Shown: positions 17,269-51,196 of the stretch, piece by piece
Layout: each line of letters opens with the position of its first letter
Position numbering within the stretch: position 1 is the stretch's first letter
DNA from: Escherichia phage UPWr_E4
Sequence record: PP418987.1
Reading direction: 5' to 3' (one strand)
Length of the DNA stretch: 64,000 bases
Made by a program: the position numbers and the translations under genes
The notes under the pieces: generated by a model
The model's database searches: none
The model's input: only the letters and a program-made list of their open reading frames with translations
What the model was told of the DNA's origin: nothing

Positions 17269-19523
17269 TTAATGTTATCAAAAGTAGTGGTGTTTCTCAG
17301 AGCTTTGACCCGCAAAAAATTATTAAAGTTTTATCTTGGGCATCTGAGGGAACATCAGTAGATCCTTATGAATTATATGAAAATATTAAATCATATCTCC
17401 GTGATGGAATGACAACTGATGACATTCAGACTATTGTCATTAAGGCTGCTGCGAATTCTATTTCGGTTGAAGAGCCTGATTATCAATATGTAGCTGCACG
17501 CTGTTTAATGTTCGCTCTTCGTAAGCATGTTTATGGGCAGTATGAACCACGTTCATTTATTGACCATATTTCTTACTGTGTAAATGAAGGTAAATACGAC
17601 CCTGAACTGTTGTCAAAATATTCAGCAGAAGAAATTACATTTTTAGAATCAAAAATTAAGCACGAACGGGATATGGAATTTACTTATTCCGGGGCGATGC
17701 AATTAAAAGAAAAATATCTAGTTAAAGATAAAACCACTGGTCAAATTTATGAAACTCCACAGTTTGCATTTATGACTATTGGAATGGCCTTGCATCAAGA
17801 TGAACCTGTTGATAGATTAAAACATGTTATCCGTTTTTATGAAGCGGTATCTACTCGACAGATTTCATTACCAACTCCTATTATGGCTGGTTGCCGTACT
17901 CCAACTCGGCAGTTTAGTTCATGCGTTGTTATTGAGGCAGGCGATTCACTGAAGTCTATCAATAAGGCTTCTGCTTCAATTGTTGAATATATCTCTAAAC
18001 GCGCTGGAATTGGTATTAACGTTGGTATGATTCGTGCTGAAGGTTCTAAGATTGGCATGGGTGAAGTACGCCATACTGGTGTTATTCCTTTTTGGAAACA
18101 TTTTCAGACTGCAGTTAAATCATGTTCACAGGGTGGAATTCGTGGCGGCGCTGCTACTGCTTATTATCCTATTTGGCATTTGGAAGTTGAAAATCTTCTC
18201 GTTTTGAAAAATAACAAAGGCGTAGAAGAAAACCGCATTCGTCATATGGATTATGGTGTTCAACTGAATGATTTGATGATGGAACGTTTTGGAAAGAACG
18301 ATTACATTACTTTGTTCAGTCCCCATGAAATGGGCGGAGAGCTTTATTATTCTTATTTTAAAGACCAAGACCGTTTCCGTGAATTATACGAAGCAGCAGA
18401 AAAAGACCCTAATATTCGTAAAAAGCGTATTAAAGCCCGTGAACTATTTGAATTGCTCATGACTGAACGCTCAGGAACAGCAAGAATTTATGTACAGTTC
18501 ATTGATAATACGAATAACTATACTCCGTTTATTCGTGAAAAGGCACCTATTCGTCAGAGTAACTTGTGCTGTGAAATTGCTATTCCAACAAATGATGTGA
18601 ATAGTCCTGATGCTGAAATTGGATTGTGTACTCTCTCTGCATTCGTACTAGATAATTTTGACTGGCAAGACCAAGATAAAATTAATGAATTGGCAGAAGT
18701 TCAAGTTCGTGCTCTTGATAATCTGTTGGATTACCAAGGATATCCAGTTCCTGAAGCAGAAAAAGCTAAAAAGCGTCGTAACCTCGGTGTAGGTGTTACC
18801 AACTATGCAGCTTGGCTGGCAAGTAACTTTGCTTCTTATGAAGATGCTAATGATTTAACACATGAACTATTTGAGAGATTACAGTATGGACTCATTAAAG
18901 CATCCATTAAGCTCGCCAAAGAAAAAGGACCTTGCGAATATTATTCAGACACTCGTTGGTCTCGAGGCGAATTACCTATCGACTGGTACAATAAAAAGAT
19001 TGACCAAATCGCAGCTCCAAAATACGTTTGTGACTGGTCGTCGCTGCGGGAAGACCTTAAGCTCTTTGGCATCCGTAATAGCACATTATCAGCACTTATG
19101 CCATGTGAGTCATCTTCCCAAGTTTCTAACAGTACAAACGGTATCGAGCCTCCACGTGGACCAGTCTCTGTTAAAGAATCAAAAGAGGGTTCCTTTAATC
19201 AAGTCGTGCCCAATATTGAGCATAACATAGACCTCTATGATTATACGTGGAAATTAGCTAAGAAAGGTAATAAACCTTATCTTACGCAAGTAGCTATTAT
19301 GCTTAAATGGGTATGTCAATCAGCTTCAGCAAATACATACTATGACCCGCAGATTTTTCCAAAAGGAAAGGTTCCAATGTCAATAATGATTGATGACATG
19401 CTATACGGATGGTATTATGGCATTAAAAATTTCTATTATCATAATACCCGTGATGGTTCTGGTACTGATGATTATGAAATAGAAACTCCAAAAGCTGAAG
19501 ATTGTTCATCCTGTAAATTATGA
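17259..19523 (+). CDS. nrdA: aerobic ribonucleotide reductase large subunit
   Basis: 754 aa; class Ia RNR motifs (NLCCEIAIP); same length as T4 NrdA. Confidence 0.95.
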   Translation: MQLINVIKSSGVSQSFDPQKIIKVLSWASEGTSVDPYELYENIKSYLRDGMTTDDIQTIVIKAAANSISVEEPDYQYVAARCLMFALRKHVYGQYEPRSFIDHISYCVNEGKYDPELLSKYSAEEITFLESKIKHERDMEFTYSGAMQLKEKYLVKDKTTGQIYETPQFAFMTIGMALHQDEPVDRLKHVIRFYEAVSTRQISLPTPIMAGCRTPTRQFSSCVVIEAGDSLKSINKASASIVEYISKRAGIGINVGMIRAEGSKIGMGEVRHTGVIPFWKHFQTAVKSCSQGGIRGGAATAYYPIWHLEVENLLVLKNNKGVEENRIRHMDYGVQLNDLMMERFGKNDYITLFSPHEMGGELYYSYFKDQDRFRELYEAAEKDPNIRKKRIKARELFELLMTERSGTARIYVQFIDNTNNYTPFIREKAPIRQSNLCCEIAIPTNDVNSPDAEIGLCTLSAFVLDNFDWQDQDKINELAEVQVRALDNLLDYQGYPVPEAEKAKKRRNLGVGVTNYAAWLASNFASYEDANDLTHELFERLQYGLIKASIKLAKEKGPCEYYSDTRWSRGELPIDWYNKKIDQIAAPKYVCDWSSLREDLKLFGIRNSTLSALMPCESSSQVSNSTNGIEPPRGPVSVKESKEGSFNQVVPNIEHNIDLYDYTWKLAKKGNKPYLTQVAIMLKWVCQSASANTYYDPQIFPKGKVPMSIMIDDMLYGWYYGIKNFYYHNTRDGSGTDDYEIETPKAEDCSSCKL

Positions 19524-19574
19524 TATAATTTGACTCACGGACGAGTCACCAACTATTAACTAAGCGGAAAATTT

Positions 19575-20753
19575 ATGAGCACAGTTTTTAATACAAACCC
19601 AGTTGATGTTTTAAAAGAACCTATGTTTTTTGGTTCAGGTCTTGGTATTGCGCGTTATGATATTCAACGTCATAAAGTTTTTGAAGATTTAACCGAAAAG
19701 CAGTTGTCATTTTTCTGGCGTCCTGAAGAAGTAAACTTAATGATGGATGCTGCACAGTTTAATAAGCTTCCTCAGTACCAGCAAAATATTTTTACTAACA
19801 ACCTGAAGTATCAATCACTTTTAGATAGCATTCAGGGTCGTGCGCCGTCTGCTGTACTTATGTCATTAATTTCAGACCCAAGTCTTGATACATGGGTTGC
19901 TACATGGACTTTTAGTGAAACTATTCACAGTCGTTCATATACTCATATCATGCGAAATCTTTATACTGATCCATCGAAGGTATTTGATGAGATTGTATTA
20001 GATGAAGCTATTATGAAACGTGCTGAATCCATTGGACGTTATTATGATGATGTTCTGATTAAAACTCGTTATTGGGAAAACGCTAAAGCTGATATCGAAT
20101 ACCAAAAAGAAATTAATGCAGACGAAGACGTTATTGAAGATGCTATTGAGCATGAGACATATTGGAAGCGTGAGTTAATGAAATCTCTTTACCTCTGTTT
20201 GCACGTTATTAATGCCTTAGAAGCTATTCGTTTTTATGTATCTTTCGCATGTACCTTTAACTTCCATAAGAACATGGAAATCATGGAAGGTAATGCCAAG
20301 ATTATGAAGTTCATTGCACGCGATGAACAGCTTCACCTTAAAGGCACCCAATATATTATTCGTCAACTTCAATCTGGTACTGATGGAGATCAATGGGTTA
20401 AAATTGCTCAAGAGTGTGAACAAGAAGCAGTTGATATTTTCATGGAAGTTAACCGCCAAGAAAAAGATTGGGCAGTTCATTTATTTAAAGATGGAGATGT
20501 TCCTGGATTAAATACAAATAGCATGTGGAGCTTTATTGATTACTTAACTGTATCTCGTATGAAGCAGTGTGGTCTTCCATGCCCAATTACCGATGCTCCG
20601 GTTAAACATCCATATCCTTGGATTCGTGAATATCTTAATTCTGATAATGTTCAATCTGCGCCACAAGAAGTAGAATTGTCATCTTATCTTGTTGCACAGA
20701 TTGATAATGATGTTGATGATAAAGTTATGATGAGTTTTAAAAAATACTTTTAA
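19575..20753 (+). CDS. nrdB: aerobic ribonucleotide reductase small subunit, uninterrupted (no intron)
   Basis: 392 aa continuous ORF following nrdA. Confidence 0.9.
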   Translation: MSTVFNTNPVDVLKEPMFFGSGLGIARYDIQRHKVFEDLTEKQLSFFWRPEEVNLMMDAAQFNKLPQYQQNIFTNNLKYQSLLDSIQGRAPSAVLMSLISDPSLDTWVATWTFSETIHSRSYTHIMRNLYTDPSKVFDEIVLDEAIMKRAESIGRYYDDVLIKTRYWENAKADIEYQKEINADEDVIEDAIEHETYWKRELMKSLYLCLHVINALEAIRFYVSFACTFNFHKNMEIMEGNAKIMKFIARDEQLHLKGTQYIIRQLQSGTDGDQWVKIAQECEQEAVDIFMEVNRQEKDWAVHLFKDGDVPGLNTNSMWSFIDYLTVSRMKQCGLPCPITDAPVKHPYPWIREYLNSDNVQSAPQEVELSSYLVAQIDNDVDDKVMMSFKKYF

Positions 20754-47232: not shown

Positions 47233-48744
47233 TTATAAATTAACTGTTTTCATTACGTAATTAAATTTTTCATCTGCGTAGCGCTGAATACGATCAATGC
47301 CGTGTTTTAAAAGATAGTTCAAGTGAACATATTTCTTTTTAGTATTAGCAGATTTTGGCTTGACACCACAGTCATCTATGAGGTCCCAGACTGTTGCGAT
47401 TGTTTTAGAACCATGCTTACGTAATACACGACCGATTGTTTGTAATACAATGATTTTTGATTTAACACCGTGCGCTAAAACAACGTGATGCAGATTTTTA
47501 ACTGAAATACCAGTAGAAAATACACCATAACTAGCTACTATAATTATTCCTTTACCATTTTCAGCTAAGGTTTTCATTACGTTGCGGGTTTCGGTATCAA
47601 CTTCCCCTGATACGTAATAAACTTTATCGTATTCATTTTTAATTAAATCGAAAATAGCTTTACCGTGCGATACGTGTTTAAACATGACAAAAGCGTTTTC
47701 ATCTTTTTGTGCAAGCTTAATAGCTAATTTAGCGATCCATTTATTTCTTTTACTAAGCCCAGTAATAATTTTTATTTCTTCTTGGTAAGTTTTTCCCTTT
47801 AATTTAGTAGTGAACTCATCGGGATAGCGAAGAAAAATACTATTAATTTTTAACTCAGTTACTTGTCCATCTTCCATTAATTTAGAGGTCGTTACTGGCT
47901 TAAATATTTCACCGAACATTCCAACATACTGCATGATATTGGCTTTGCCATCACGTAATGAACCAGACAAACCGAATTTGAACATGCAGTTATTTAAACC
48001 TGATATGATAGATGAAATACTTTTTCCTGTAGCAAGATGACATTCATCATTCATCATCATTCCAAACTGTGAGAACCATTCTTTCGGTTGTTTTACTACA
48101 GTTTGCCATGTACCAACAACGACCGGTGCATCATTTTTATATTTATCATCTTTTGATGCTCCACCACCGATTTTCTTTATCATTGCATGACTGAATAAAC
48201 GATAGTCAACAAAGTCATCAGCCATCTGAGTTGTCAGAGCAGTTGTTGGAACAATGATAAGAATTTTACCTTCATAATTTTCCAAATAATATCGCGCAAG
48301 CAAAGCTTGAATTAACGATTTACCAGCGGATGTTGGAAGATTAAGAATTCTACGACGATTAACTAATCCTTCGAACACTGCATCTTTTTGATACCAGTGT
48401 GGTTCAATTCTTTTATTTCCTGAATAGATTTCTAATTTAGAAAGCCATTCATCAAAATCTTTTCTTGATAATTCTTCTTTTTCGTTAATTTGTGGGTCAA
48501 TCCAGGCTTTATAGCCAAAGTTATCACAGAACTTTTTAATTTGCCCGACTAAGCCGAATGGAAGAAGACGATTATAATCTAACAGACGGATTCGTCCATC
48601 CCAGTGGCCATATCTGTACTTCGGATTAAAACGATACCCATCAGCTTCAAAGCTAAAGAAATCACGGAGTTCATGAAATGTACTTTCTTCACAATCAATT
48701 CTCACGTGACTAAAATCATAAAAATGTACTTTAATGTCAGTCAT
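47233..48744 (-). CDS. uvsW: DNA/RNA helicase UvsW (SF2)
   Basis: 503 aa; Walker A PTSAGKS and DECH box. Confidence 0.9.
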   Translation of the reverse strand: MTDIKVHFYDFSHVRIDCEESTFHELRDFFSFEADGYRFNPKYRYGHWDGRIRLLDYNRLLPFGLVGQIKKFCDNFGYKAWIDPQINEKEELSRKDFDEWLSKLEIYSGNKRIEPHWYQKDAVFEGLVNRRRILNLPTSAGKSLIQALLARYYLENYEGKILIIVPTTALTTQMADDFVDYRLFSHAMIKKIGGGASKDDKYKNDAPVVVGTWQTVVKQPKEWFSQFGMMMNDECHLATGKSISSIISGLNNCMFKFGLSGSLRDGKANIMQYVGMFGEIFKPVTTSKLMEDGQVTELKINSIFLRYPDEFTTKLKGKTYQEEIKIITGLSKRNKWIAKLAIKLAQKDENAFVMFKHVSHGKAIFDLIKNEYDKVYYVSGEVDTETRNVMKTLAENGKGIIIVASYGVFSTGISVKNLHHVVLAHGVKSKIIVLQTIGRVLRKHGSKTIATVWDLIDDCGVKPKSANTKKKYVHLNYLLKHGIDRIQRYADEKFNYVMKTVNL

Positions 48745-48769
48745 GTCTAAATACCATGTAATAAATATA

Positions 48770-48777
48770 TCTATATT
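48770..48777 (-). promoter_or_regulatory. late promoter (TATAAATA) for uvsW
   Basis: Plus-strand tatttata 26 nt upstream of the uvsW ATG. Confidence 0.5.
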
Positions 48778-48794
48778 TATACTGAGGAAATATT

Positions 48795-49475
48795 ATGATA
48801 GATAAAGATTATATTGCAGAGCTGAAGGCTCTTGATGATAACAAAGAAGCTAAAGCTAAATTAGCTGAATATGCTGAACAGTTTGGTATAAAGGTCAAAA
48901 AGAATAAATCTTTTGATAATATCGTTGTTGATATTGAAGAAGCCCTCCAGAAGCTCGCTAGTGAACCTATGCCGGAGACTGATGGGTTATCTATTAAAGA
49001 CTTAATTGATGCTGCTGATGCTGCAGAGGGGTTAAAATATGACGATGAAGAAGTCAATCCAGAAGCAGCACTTTTGATTGATTCTCCGGTTAAATCTGAC
49101 ATTAAAATTGAAGTAGTAGAAACAGATAAAATTCCTGAAAATACCACTGTTTTAATTGAAGATACTCCTTTTGTTGAAGAAAAATTCGAACAGGCTGTAG
49201 CTGAGATTATTGAATCTGAAAAGCCGTCTGTATTTACTCTTCCGGAAAACTTTAGCCCGAATCTTCAGTTGATTGGAAAAAATCCAGGATTCTGTACTGT
49301 TCCTTGGTGGATTTATCAATGGATTGCTGAAACTCCTGATTGGAAATCTCACCCAACTAGTTTTGAACATGCGTCAGCACACCAAACTTTATTTAGCTTA
49401 ATTTATTACATTAACCGTGACGGATCAGTTTTAATTCGTGAAACACGCAACTCTTCTTTCGTAACATTAAAATAA
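48795..49475 (+). CDS. inh: Inh, inhibitor of prohead protease
   Basis: 226 aa ORF at the T4 inh position next to hoc. Confidence 0.75.
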   Translation: MIDKDYIAELKALDDNKEAKAKLAEYAEQFGIKVKKNKSFDNIVVDIEEALQKLASEPMPETDGLSIKDLIDAADAAEGLKYDDEEVNPEAALLIDSPVKSDIKIEVVETDKIPENTTVLIEDTPFVEEKFEQAVAEIIESEKPSVFTLPENFSPNLQLIGKNPGFCTVPWWIYQWIAETPDWKSHPTSFEHASAHQTLFSLIYYINRDGSVLIRETRNSSFVTLK

Positions 49476-49484
49476 GGATAACTT

Positions 49485-50903
49485 ATGACTTTTACAGTTG
49501 ATATAACTCCTAAAACACCGACAGGGGTTATTGATGAAACTAAGCAGTTTACTGCTACACCCAGTGGTGAAACTGGAGGCGGAACTATTACATATGCTTG
49601 GACTGTAGATGATGCTCCACAAGATGGAGCTGAAGCAACTTTTGATTATGTATTAAAAGGACCTGCTGGACAAAAGACTATTAAAGTAGTTGCAACAAAT
49701 ACAGTTCCAGATACTGATGCTGAAACAGCAGAAGCTACTACAACTATCACAGTTCAAAATAAGACACAAACAACTACTTTAGCTGTAACTCCTGGTAGCC
49801 CTGATGCTGGAGTGATTGGAACTCCAATTGAATTTACCGCTGCCTTAGCTTCACAGCCATCAGGTGCAAACGCTACGTATCAATGGCACGTTGACGGTTC
49901 TCCTGTAGACGAAGCAACTGACGCTACATTCAATTACACTCCTGACACAAGCGGAGTTAAAAAAATCAAGTGTGTAGCTCAAGTAACTGCGGCAGATTAT
50001 GATGCACTAAGCGTTACTTCTAATGAAGTATCATTGACTGTTAATAAAAAGACGCAGACGACTACCTTGGCAGTAACTCCTGATAGTCCTCCAGCTGGAG
50101 TGATTGGAACAGCCGTTGAATTTACTGCTGCCTTAGCTTCTCAACCTGATGGGGCATCTGCTACGTATCAGTGGTATGTAGATGATTCACAAGTTGGTGG
50201 AGAAACTAACTCTACATTTAGCTATACTCCAACTACAAGTGGAGTAAAAAGAATTAAATGCGTAGCCCAAGTAACTGCTGAAAATTACAATGAAAAGGAA
50301 GTTACTTCTAATGAAGTATCATTGACAGTTAATAAGAAGACAATGAATCCACAGGTTACATTGACTCCTCCTTCTATTAATGTTCAGCAAGATGCTTCGG
50401 CTACATTTACGGCTAATGTTACGGGTGCTCCAGAAGAAGCACAAATTACTTACTCATGGAAGAAAGATTCTTCTCCTGTAGAAGGGTCAACTAACGTATA
50501 TACTGTCGATACCTCATCTGTTGGAAGTCAAACTATTGAAGTTACTGCTGTCGTTACTGCAACTGATTACGATAGCAAAACTATTACAGCAGAAGGTCAA
50601 GTTCAGGTAACTGATAAAGTTGCTCCAGAACCAGAAGGTGAATTGCCTTATGTTCATCCTCTTCCACATCGTACTTCAGCTTATATCTGGTGCGGTTGGT
50701 GGGTTATGGATGAAATCCAAAAAATGACCGAAGAAGGTAAAGATTGGAAAACTGAAGATCCAGACAGTAAATACTACCTGCATCGTTACACTCTTCAGAA
50801 GATGATGAAAGACTATCCAGAAGTTGATGTTCAAGAATCACGCAATGGATACATCATTCATAAAACTGCTTTAGAAACTGGTATCATCTATACCTATCCA
50901 TAA
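49485..50903 (+). CDS. hoc: Hoc, outer capsid decoration protein with Ig-like domains (472 aa)
   Basis: MTFTVDITPKTPTGVIDETKQF..., tandem Ig-like modules and conserved capsid-binding C-terminus ...YIWCGWWVMDEIQKM.... Confidence 0.85.
   Translation: MTFTVDITPKTPTGVIDETKQFTATPSGETGGGTITYAWTVDDAPQDGAEATFDYVLKGPAGQKTIKVVATNTVPDTDAETAEATTTITVQNKTQTTTLAVTPGSPDAGVIGTPIEFTAALASQPSGANATYQWHVDGSPVDEATDATFNYTPDTSGVKKIKCVAQVTAADYDALSVTSNEVSLTVNKKTQTTTLAVTPDSPPAGVIGTAVEFTAALASQPDGASATYQWYVDDSQVGGETNSTFSYTPTTSGVKRIKCVAQVTAENYNEKEVTSNEVSLTVNKKTMNPQVTLTPPSINVQQDASATFTANVTGAPEEAQITYSWKKDSSPVEGSTNVYTVDTSSVGSQTIEVTAVVTATDYDSKTITAEGQVQVTDKVAPEPEGELPYVHPLPHRTSAYIWCGWWVMDEIQKMTEEGKDWKTEDPDSKYYLHRYTLQKMMKDYPEVDVQESRNGYIIHKTALETGIIYTYP
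49770..50342 (+). repeat. tandem diverged repeat (2 x about 288 bp) encoding two closely related Ig-like domains of Hoc
   Basis: TTTLAVTPGSPDAGVIGTPIEFTAALASQP... versus TTTLAVTPDSPPAGVIGTAVEFTAALASQP..., about 75 percent amino acid identity by eye. Confidence 0.6.
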
Positions 50904-50998
50904 TCATAATCATAAGGGGCTTCGGCCCCTTTCTTCATTTTGAAAGCACACAAAACATACTCAGAAAATGATGTATATAATGGCATCAACTCGATAAC

Positions 50999-51196
50999 AT
51001 GAGATTGATTATGAGAACTGAGGTTGTGGTGTTTACTCTTCATGAGTCTGGAAAGTCATTCATTGAAATTGCTCGTGAATTAAACTTACAGGCGAAAGAA
51101 GTGGCTGTATTATGGGCTCGAGCTATGACTGCTAAGAATAAATTTGAAACTCGAGAAAAAGTTGTCTATAGAAAAAGACATATTAATAAAAGGTGA
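50999..51196 (+). CDS. small putative helix-turn-helix protein (24.3-like)
   Basis: 65 aa; segment GKSFIEIARELNLQAKEVAVLWAR looks like an HTH. Confidence 0.45.
   Translation: MRLIMRTEVVVFTLHESGKSFIEIARELNLQAKEVAVLWARAMTAKNKFETREKVVYRKRHINKR

Follow-up and report, generated by a model that had tools for sequence, protein, structure and literature searches.

A second, tandem D2 module gives the Hoc protein of Escherichia phage UPWr_E4 a fourth Ig-like domain

Introduction

The hoc gene of Escherichia phage UPWr_E4 codes for a Hoc protein of 472 amino acids in which one Ig-like domain, D2, is present as two consecutive in-frame copies. The window analysed here, which is the whole stretch of 64,000 nucleotides under sequence record PP418987.1, had previously been read from its letters and open reading frames only, and the original prediction was that Hoc carries an extra Ig-like domain through tandem domain duplication. 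That observation is real and its reading correct, as confirmed by the presence of a second in-frame D2 module, one unit beyond T4 Hoc. It is very probable that the gene is the hoc of a Tequatrovirus and that its product is a capsid-surface fibre of four Ig-like domains (D1, D2a, D2b and D3) with an anchor, the extra domain being the second D2 module. Longer forms of Hoc are common among the sequenced relatives, so the finding is real but ordinary.

The hoc locus

The locus at 49485-50903 is the T4 hoc locus. Its product matches the T4 Hoc chain in the PDB (5vf3_Z) with E=7e-218 in a phmmer search. On one side it adjoins inh, at 48795-49475, and on the other the homologues of 24.3, 24.2 and rnlB, which is also the arrangement in T4, while uvsW lies upstream of the locus on the opposite strand. 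The resulting gene order, uvsW-inh-hoc-24.3-24.2-rnlB, agrees with that of annotated T4-like genomes (T4, RB3, GiZh, PP01, ime09 and others). Positions 38000-62000 of the window share 99.4% identity with Escherichia phages vB_EcoM-CHD2BS1 and G3F6, both of which belong to Tequatrovirus.

The gap between inh and hoc is only 9 nt, and a putative ribosome-binding site 6 nt ahead of the hoc ATG shares bases with the inh stop codon (Table 1). A hairpin resembling an intrinsic terminator follows the hoc stop codon, and the records of GiZh, KAW1E185 and G10400 annotate a terminator at the equivalent position after hoc. In a promoter scan, sigma-70-like matches were fewer than the shuffle expectation, and a scan of the + strand gave no exact TATAAATA directly upstream of either gene.

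Table 1. Positions of hoc, its modules and the adjacent signals in the window.
Feature	Coordinates	Strand	Details
Putative ribosome-binding site, AAGGA	49474..49478	+	read from the sequence; putative function
hoc gene	49485..50903	+	ORF of 472 codons plus stop; product, highly immunogenic outer capsid protein
Domain 1, distal Ig-like	49485..49748	+	aa 1-88 in repeat register; structural domain ~aa 1-91; AF2 strands 4-91, pLDDT ~83-93
Repeat copy 1, class a D2 module	49749..50036	+	aa 89-184; structural domain ~aa 93-187
Repeat copy 2, class b D2 module	50037..50324	+	aa 185-280; structural domain ~aa 189-283
Short recombination or conversion tract, head of copy 2	50052..50156	+	105 nt; identical to G10400
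Domain 3, Ig-like	50325..50612	+	aa 281-376; structural domain ~aa 285-376; Pfam Ig_3/I-set 289-373; pLDDT ~87-95
Linker and C-terminal capsid-binding domain, non-Ig	50613..50900	+	aa 377-472; aligns to T4 Hoc 281-376
Intrinsic-terminator-like hairpin AAGGGGC-TTCG-GCCCCTT with T-rich tail	50914..50941	+	11 nt past the hoc stop

A tandem repeat of one Ig-like domain

A repeat search of hoc returns one two-copy direct-repeat family, with units of 288 nt (96 aa) at a spacing of 288 nt and 75% identity. Tandem Repeats Finder (TRF) places the repeat at 49749-50342 with a period of 288, 2.1 copies, 76% matches and a score of 685. The original prediction had put it at 49770-50342; the end agrees with the TRF end, while the start falls about 20 nt late. 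Both units are in frame with the ATG and lie head-to-tail. They are identical at 215 of 288 bases (74.7%) and at 71 of 96 residues (74%), which bears out the earlier estimate, made by eye, of two consecutive modules of about 96 aa and about 75% identity. The differences between them are distributed over the three codon positions as 14, 16 and 43.

In local alignments with a shuffle control, D2a and D2b share 76% identity (z=63), a similarity that is far beyond chance, and they resemble each other more than either resembles any other domain of the protein; the remaining pairs of Ig-like domains show 32-44% identity (z=10-17). The C-terminal domain was without similarity to the Ig-like domains of the protein in the same kind of alignment (z ~0). 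Since all pairs of Ig-like domains are similar, the whole Ig string of Hoc looks like a product of serial duplication in which the D2a/D2b pair would be the latest step. Each repeat unit has the length of one structural domain, and the two units coincide with the domains at residues 93-187 and 189-283 of the AlphaFold2 (AF2) model. The data thus show the two D2 copies to be in-frame tandem paralogues.

Assembly errors typically arise at tandem repeats, and the two copies could in principle stem from faulty assembly or sequencing, or from a duplication that is very recent and confined to this isolate; the data hold nothing specific in favour of such an origin. Mis-assembly of one unit into two, in either direction, is excluded by the 73 differences over 288 bases between the copies. 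The intact gene of 1419 nt is also present in dozens of phages sequenced independently since 2011 (ime09, phiD1, PP01, HP3 and G10400), and synonymous divergence between the copies (dS ~1) argues against recent duplication. The divergence of the copies, the independent relatives and the dS value rule this explanation out, and the probability that we would still assign to it is negligible.

Domain architecture

The hoc product consists of four Ig-like domains followed by a C-terminal capsid-binding domain. Ig-like and BIG_2 profiles had been proposed as a check of the extra domain, and the former were recovered in part. The Pfam PKD profile reaches 36.8 bits, above its cutoff of 23.5, with its best stretch at residues 195-267, in copy 2, and Ig_2 scores 29.6 bits against 27; Ig_3 (28.5 against 30) and I-set (22.8 against 23.7) stay under their cutoffs, both of them on domain 3. 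Big_2 gave no match to the hoc product in the Pfam search. An AF2 model built with 39 homologues has a mean pLDDT of 83 and comprises four all-beta (beta-sandwich) blocks at about residues 1-91, 93-187, 189-283 and 285-376, with pLDDT near 90 (~77-94 for the structural domain of copy 1). The C-terminal region is modelled as helices and strands with low confidence (pLDDT 36-66). The top Foldseek matches of the model in the PDB are four-Ig fragments, namely Dscam1, Sidekick-2 and ICAM-5 D1-D4, and the Hoc of phage RB49 (3shs) was also retrieved. For the whole model the TM-scores are low (0.15-0.3), owing to differences in inter-domain angles. These matches support the four Ig-like domains and no closer kinship.

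Comparison with T4 Hoc

T4 Hoc (UniProt P18056; PDB 5vf3 chain Z) has 376 aa, in contrast to the 472 aa of the protein described here; both lengths had been given correctly in the original prediction. It is made of three Ig-like domains and a non-Ig capsid-binding domain (PMC10385173), and it does not, as the prediction had allowed it might, have the same four-Ig architecture and length. The alignment that had been suggested as a check covers residues 1-125 and 211-472 of the longer protein, and since these stretches flank the gap, the surplus is exactly one 96-aa unit: two D2-type modules here stand against a single D2 in T4 Hoc. Residues 377-472 pair with residues 281-376 of T4 Hoc inside a stretch of 531.9 bits. 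The capsid-contact residues Y293, H295, R300, W309 and W310 of T4 Hoc, which correspond to Y389, H391, R396, W405 and W406 here, are all invariant in the alignment. At residue 29, E is found here and Q in T4 Hoc. Copy 2 is the counterpart of the single D2 of T4, with a DNA identity of 89.9%, against 80.2% for copy 1.

Frequency and copy number among relatives

The 472-aa Hoc is a common, long-deposited Tequatrovirus allele and is not peculiar to this phage. Among the best 120 clusters at 90% identity retrieved with this Hoc, the lengths were 376 aa (79 clusters), 472 aa (29), 568-570 aa (8), 377 aa (2), 468 aa (1) and 567 aa (1). The lengths of 376, 472 and 568-570 aa correspond to one, two and three D2-type modules. 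With a 100-nt query, the junction between copy 1 and copy 2 is covered to at least 80% in at least 79 phage records, a few of which (ECML-123-2, T4_ev151) consist of two pieces joined across one module. As ~655-674 records carry the C-terminal region of hoc, roughly one in nine deposited T4-like genomes has two or more modules, a share (~11%) that is approximate because megablast may miss diverged junctions.

The carriers of two modules include the long-known phages PP01, ime09, phiD1 and HP3. The 472-aa proteins of CHD2BS1/G3F6, phiD1, G10400, PP01, HP3, ime09, teqhal and JEP6 have the same length and the same five-domain architecture as the one described here, and their genes are 93-98.9% identical to it in DNA. 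In annotations, the 472-aa product has been labelled 'Hoc-like head decoration', 'PKD domain protein', 'capsid and scaffold protein' and, once, 'endonuclease'. For annotation, the 472-aa form is to be taken as a normal allele and named Hoc, in place of the last three of these labels.

Expansion of the Ig string is not restricted to this genus. A query with the C-terminal domain retrieves 136 Hoc-family representatives (clusters at 50% identity), 81 of them at E ≤ 1e-10, and in most of the 136 the match falls at the C-terminus. The part of these representatives that precedes the match spans about 1-15 domain lengths, most often two. Recent duplications of adjacent domains are also found in other lineages, with 63 of 80 residues identical at offset 94 in one representative (P0124) and 66 of 80 at offset 89 in another (P0134). 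Hoc homologues are described as keeping a linear string of one to ten or more Ig-like domains (PMC10385173), and a three-domain variant has been characterised in phiPNJ-9 (PMC11853027). The Hoc proteins of RB49 (PDB 3shs), phiPNJ-9 and Serratia phage Muldoon (10 Ig-like domains) combine an Ig string with a C-terminal capsid-binding domain, as here; unlike the phages compared above, they belong to distant lineages, and their expansions are independent events.

Module classes and mosaicism

Clustering by DNA sorts the D2 modules into three classes, named a, b and c. All the multi-module genes clustered begin their array with class a, which also forms the sole module of UFV13 and GiZh. Class b occupies the second place here and in phiD1, PP01, teqhal and G10400 and the middle of the three-module gene, and it is the sole module of T4, RB3 and KAW1E185. 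Class c occupies the second place in HP3, ime09 and JEP6, which differ in this from the phage under study, and the third in UGKSEcP1. In the 568-570-aa Hoc proteins of UGKSEcP1/UGKSEcP2 and metagenomic relatives, the first two modules are of classes a and b, as here; in UGKSEcP1/UGKSEcP2, unlike here, a third module of class c brings the number of Ig-like domains to five. The modules of UGKSEcP1 are 99.7% identical to module 1 of phiD1 (class a), 99.7% to module 2 of phiD1 (class b) and 96.9% to module 2 of ime09 (class c).

The architectures seen in 121 proteins were a, b, c, mosaics, a-b, a-c, b-c and a-b-c; arrays in reverse order, or with the same class repeated, were absent from these 121. 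This census took in the 120 best-scoring clusters and 18 genomes, a subset of all relatives. At the 72 sites that separate a from b, most modules are patchworks. The D2 of T4, for example, is of class b in blocks 3-5 (0-1 mismatch per 48 nt) and of class a in its last block (2 mismatches against 14).

Such patchwork is also visible in the gene described here. The first modules of phiD1, G10400 and CHD2BS1 match copy 1 at 100% identity, and the best deposited match of copy 2 reaches 96.9%. Thirteen of the 16 differences between this hoc and that of the nearest genome, CHD2BS1, fall in the 105-nt stretch at the head of copy 2 (Table 1), which is a short recombination or conversion tract. This G10400-type patch in an otherwise CHD2BS1-type gene explains why copy 2 is at most 96.9% identical to any record.

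Age of the duplication and selection

Nei-Gojobori estimates for copy 1 against copy 2 are dS 0.99 and dN 0.18. For comparison, the hoc loci of this phage and of 17 other phages (18 in all) were analysed by segments. The median pairwise dS is 0.27 for the orthologous D1 and 0.23 for the orthologous D3+D4 (across phages, 0.26 for D3 and 0.15 for D4). For the modules, pooled dS is 0.19-0.23 within classes and rises between them to 0.97 (a/b), 0.61 (a/c) and 0.56 (b/c). These dS estimates come from just 96 codons, lie close to saturation and lose sharpness through recombination, and any single date for the duplication is meaningless because the modules recombine. With a dS of ~1.0 between the copies and of ~0.25 between orthologous segments, the age of the paralogues is several times that of the diversity among hoc alleles of the genus as sampled. 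The data thus show that the two D2 copies parted long before the Tequatrovirus hoc alleles sampled here split from one another, in line with the earlier view of an older duplication with clearly diverged DNA (dS ~1.0 against orthologous medians of 0.23-0.27 in the 18 phages).

The dN/dS ratio lies at 0.08-0.30 throughout the Ig modules and, among phages, at 0.04 in the C-terminal domain, a pattern which indicates that both D2 copies are maintained by purifying selection. The opposite explanation would be that the extra module is a tolerated, functionless and decaying insertion, and that the longer Hoc is without selective meaning. It could draw on the fact that Hoc is dispensable in the laboratory (PMC9958956) and on the annotation of the hoc genes of T6 and ACG-C40 as split by frameshifts. 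However, the ratios within class a (0.29), within class b (0.26) and between the two (0.15) are similar to those of D1 (0.30) and D3 (0.12), the 30 clusters of 472 aa contain no stops or frameshifts, and both modules are modelled with pLDDT ~90. Decay of a useless insertion is thus highly improbable.

Origin of the two-module gene

Tentatively, and as a possibility to which we give somewhat less than even weight, D2 would be a recombining, collinear cassette array of three ancient classes that varies the length and the surface of the fibre, with T4 Hoc as a reduced chimeric derivative of it and not the ground state. In the preferred reading, which goes less far, the D2 position is a small array of variable copy number, with one to three modules of the old classes a, b and c in fixed order. 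Unequal homologous recombination between modules would add or remove units, crossing-over at the conserved module ends would lead to their loss and perhaps to their regain, and short conversion tracts would shuffle patches between them. The present phage carries a-b, and T4 a single module mostly of class b with a class-a tail. An old array is favoured because the order of the classes is constant and because a-type and b-type single-copy genes show a dS of ~1.0 in D2 and of ~0.25 in the flanks.

A simpler version, in which one crossover within an a-b array would suffice to yield the single-module genes, was rejected. One deletion step fits RB3 and KAW1E185 (a class-a head followed by b) as well as UFV13 and GiZh (a class-a body followed by a b tail), and fails for T4, slur07 and module 2 of HP3. 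The class-b body and class-a tail of T4 do not derive from one simple deletion in an a-b array, so a history of an array with losses needs additional exchanges.

T4-type phages recombine freely, and the extra module might instead have arisen when two long-diverged, single-copy D2 alleles were joined by an out-of-register crossover during co-infection, in which case the 25% divergence of the copies would be the age of the alleles and not that of the two-domain architecture. The two parental types that this requires do exist as single-module genes: a-like D2 modules in 376-aa proteins (92% protein identity to copy 1 in the cluster P0093 and 94.5% DNA identity in ACG-C40) and b-like ones (95% protein identity to copy 2 in P0103 and 96.1% DNA identity in KAW1E185); the heavy mosaicism of the modules is also consistent with it. 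Nonetheless, a precedes b and b precedes c in all of the ~40 multi-module clusters. If alleles had been joined unequally and at random, arrays such as b-a, c-a, a-a and b-b should also occur, and none of these is found. For a-type and b-type single-copy genes that differ by a dS of ~1.0 in D2 and of ~0.25 in the flanks, differential loss of old paralogues is simpler. Moreover, a joining of alleles still requires a first non-homologous duplication at some point. We thus regard this origin as unlikely, and the old array as the preferred reading.

Possible function of the extra module

The C-terminal domain of T4 Hoc attaches the protein to the middle of gp23 hexamers; Hoc is present in 155 copies per head and forms a fibre of ~180 Å (PMC10385173). 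In the present phage, the extra module may act mainly as a rigid spacer that would push the distal D1 farther from the capsid. Each of the ~155 fibres would gain one Ig domain, that is, ~4-4.5 nm on ~18 nm, or about a quarter of its length, and a longer Hoc fibre is the likely result.

The module might also contribute contacts of its own. The tripeptide S-L-T is a reported MUC2 contact in the three-domain Hoc of phiPNJ-9 (PMC11853027); since it ends each D2 module, it is present twice in the translation of this hoc (S183-L184-T185 and S279-L280-T281), and the extra module would thereby provide a second copy of a residue group that contacts mucin in another Hoc. Residues E29 and G33, which are needed for MUC2 binding in the Hoc of phiPNJ-6 (PMC11150434), are present in the D1 translated here. 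By alignment, D342 corresponds to D246 of T4 Hoc, the site of an adaptive change in mucin binding (PMC9271167, cited in PMC11853027). Mucin-binding residues have been mapped to different domains in different Hoc proteins (PMC11150434, PMC11853027), and as the published data disagree on the domain that contacts mucin, a spacer role is what we infer. Either the extra length or the second S-L-T may alter adherence, aggregation or antigenicity; the original prediction had proposed a change in capsid surface display and possibly in adherence to mucus or bacterial surfaces.

Significance

Hoc is a platform for T4 capsid display and vaccine design, and it is the protein behind the model of phage adherence to mucus. 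The variable number of Ig-like domains in the Hoc family is already known. A full-text search of the openly accessible literature gave no explicit account of the 472-aa D2 duplication in Tequatrovirus; what it gave was just a general statement on the varying number of Ig domains and the three-domain variant. As D2 copy-number polymorphism was absent from the literature found, the population structure of the a/b/c mosaic is a modest addition to that knowledge and not a discovery. Its interest lies in the fact that close relatives of T4 possess natural fibres with three, four or five Ig-like domains, for which interchangeable D2 modules serve as building blocks. This natural series is a ready-made and naturally validated means to vary the length of the fibre, and it lets the effect of Hoc length on mucin adherence, aggregation and immunogenicity be asked.

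The hoc locus and its neighbours

The short gap that separates uvsW from inh in the window was inspected, and no homing-endonuclease gene (segE/hoc.2) is found between the two genes. Among the fetched hoc loci, an endonuclease gene is present at this spot in T4, RB3, T6, ACG-C40, teqhal, slur07, and G10400, and it is absent in phiD1, UFV13, GiZh, PP01, HP3, ime09, and JEP6. The gap also harbors one copy of the T4 late-promoter motif TATAAATA, which occurs 18 times in the whole window vs. 8.4 expected from shuffles. On the other side of hoc, comparison of the ORFs with the fetched genomes indicates that the 24.3 homologue stops ahead of the start of 24.2, as it does in HP3; most of the other fetched genomes carry a 204-nt version of 24.3 that overlaps 24.2. 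The RefSeq taxonomy line of HP3 (NC_041919.1) reads 'Rosemountvirus', yet its hoc locus is Tequatrovirus-like.

Features of the hoc locus in the window and of hoc in two other phages (locus-internal coordinates for the latter)
Feature	Position	Strand	Remark
uvsW	47233-48744	-	
uvsW-inh gap	48745-48794		50 nt only
Late-promoter motif TATAAATA	48774-48781	-	inside the gap
inh	48795-49475	+	
Gene 24.3 homologue	50999-51196		65-aa ORF
hoc, T6 (NC_054907)	L006 1337-2468		1132 nt, two annotated CDS
hoc, ACG-C40 (NC_019399)	L007 1337-2468		1132 nt, two annotated CDS

Variation of Hoc

The division of hoc into two CDS in the T6 and ACG-C40 records corresponds to a one-base frameshift, which could be either a sequencing error or a natural Hoc-null allele. 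A T4-type hoc D2-D2 junction, the boundary between two tandem D2 Ig-like modules, was noticed at 19502-19601 (97% identity) of MG010123.1; oddly, this database entry of 32 kb bears the name 'Staphylococcus phage SAJK-IND'. Two more distant representatives of the Hoc family, P0124 (468 aa) and P0134 (545 aa), contain adjacent-domain duplications of their own, with 79-82% identity over 80 residues and offsets of 94 and 89 residues, respectively; tandem Ig-domain duplication is thus an independently recurring event within the Hoc family.
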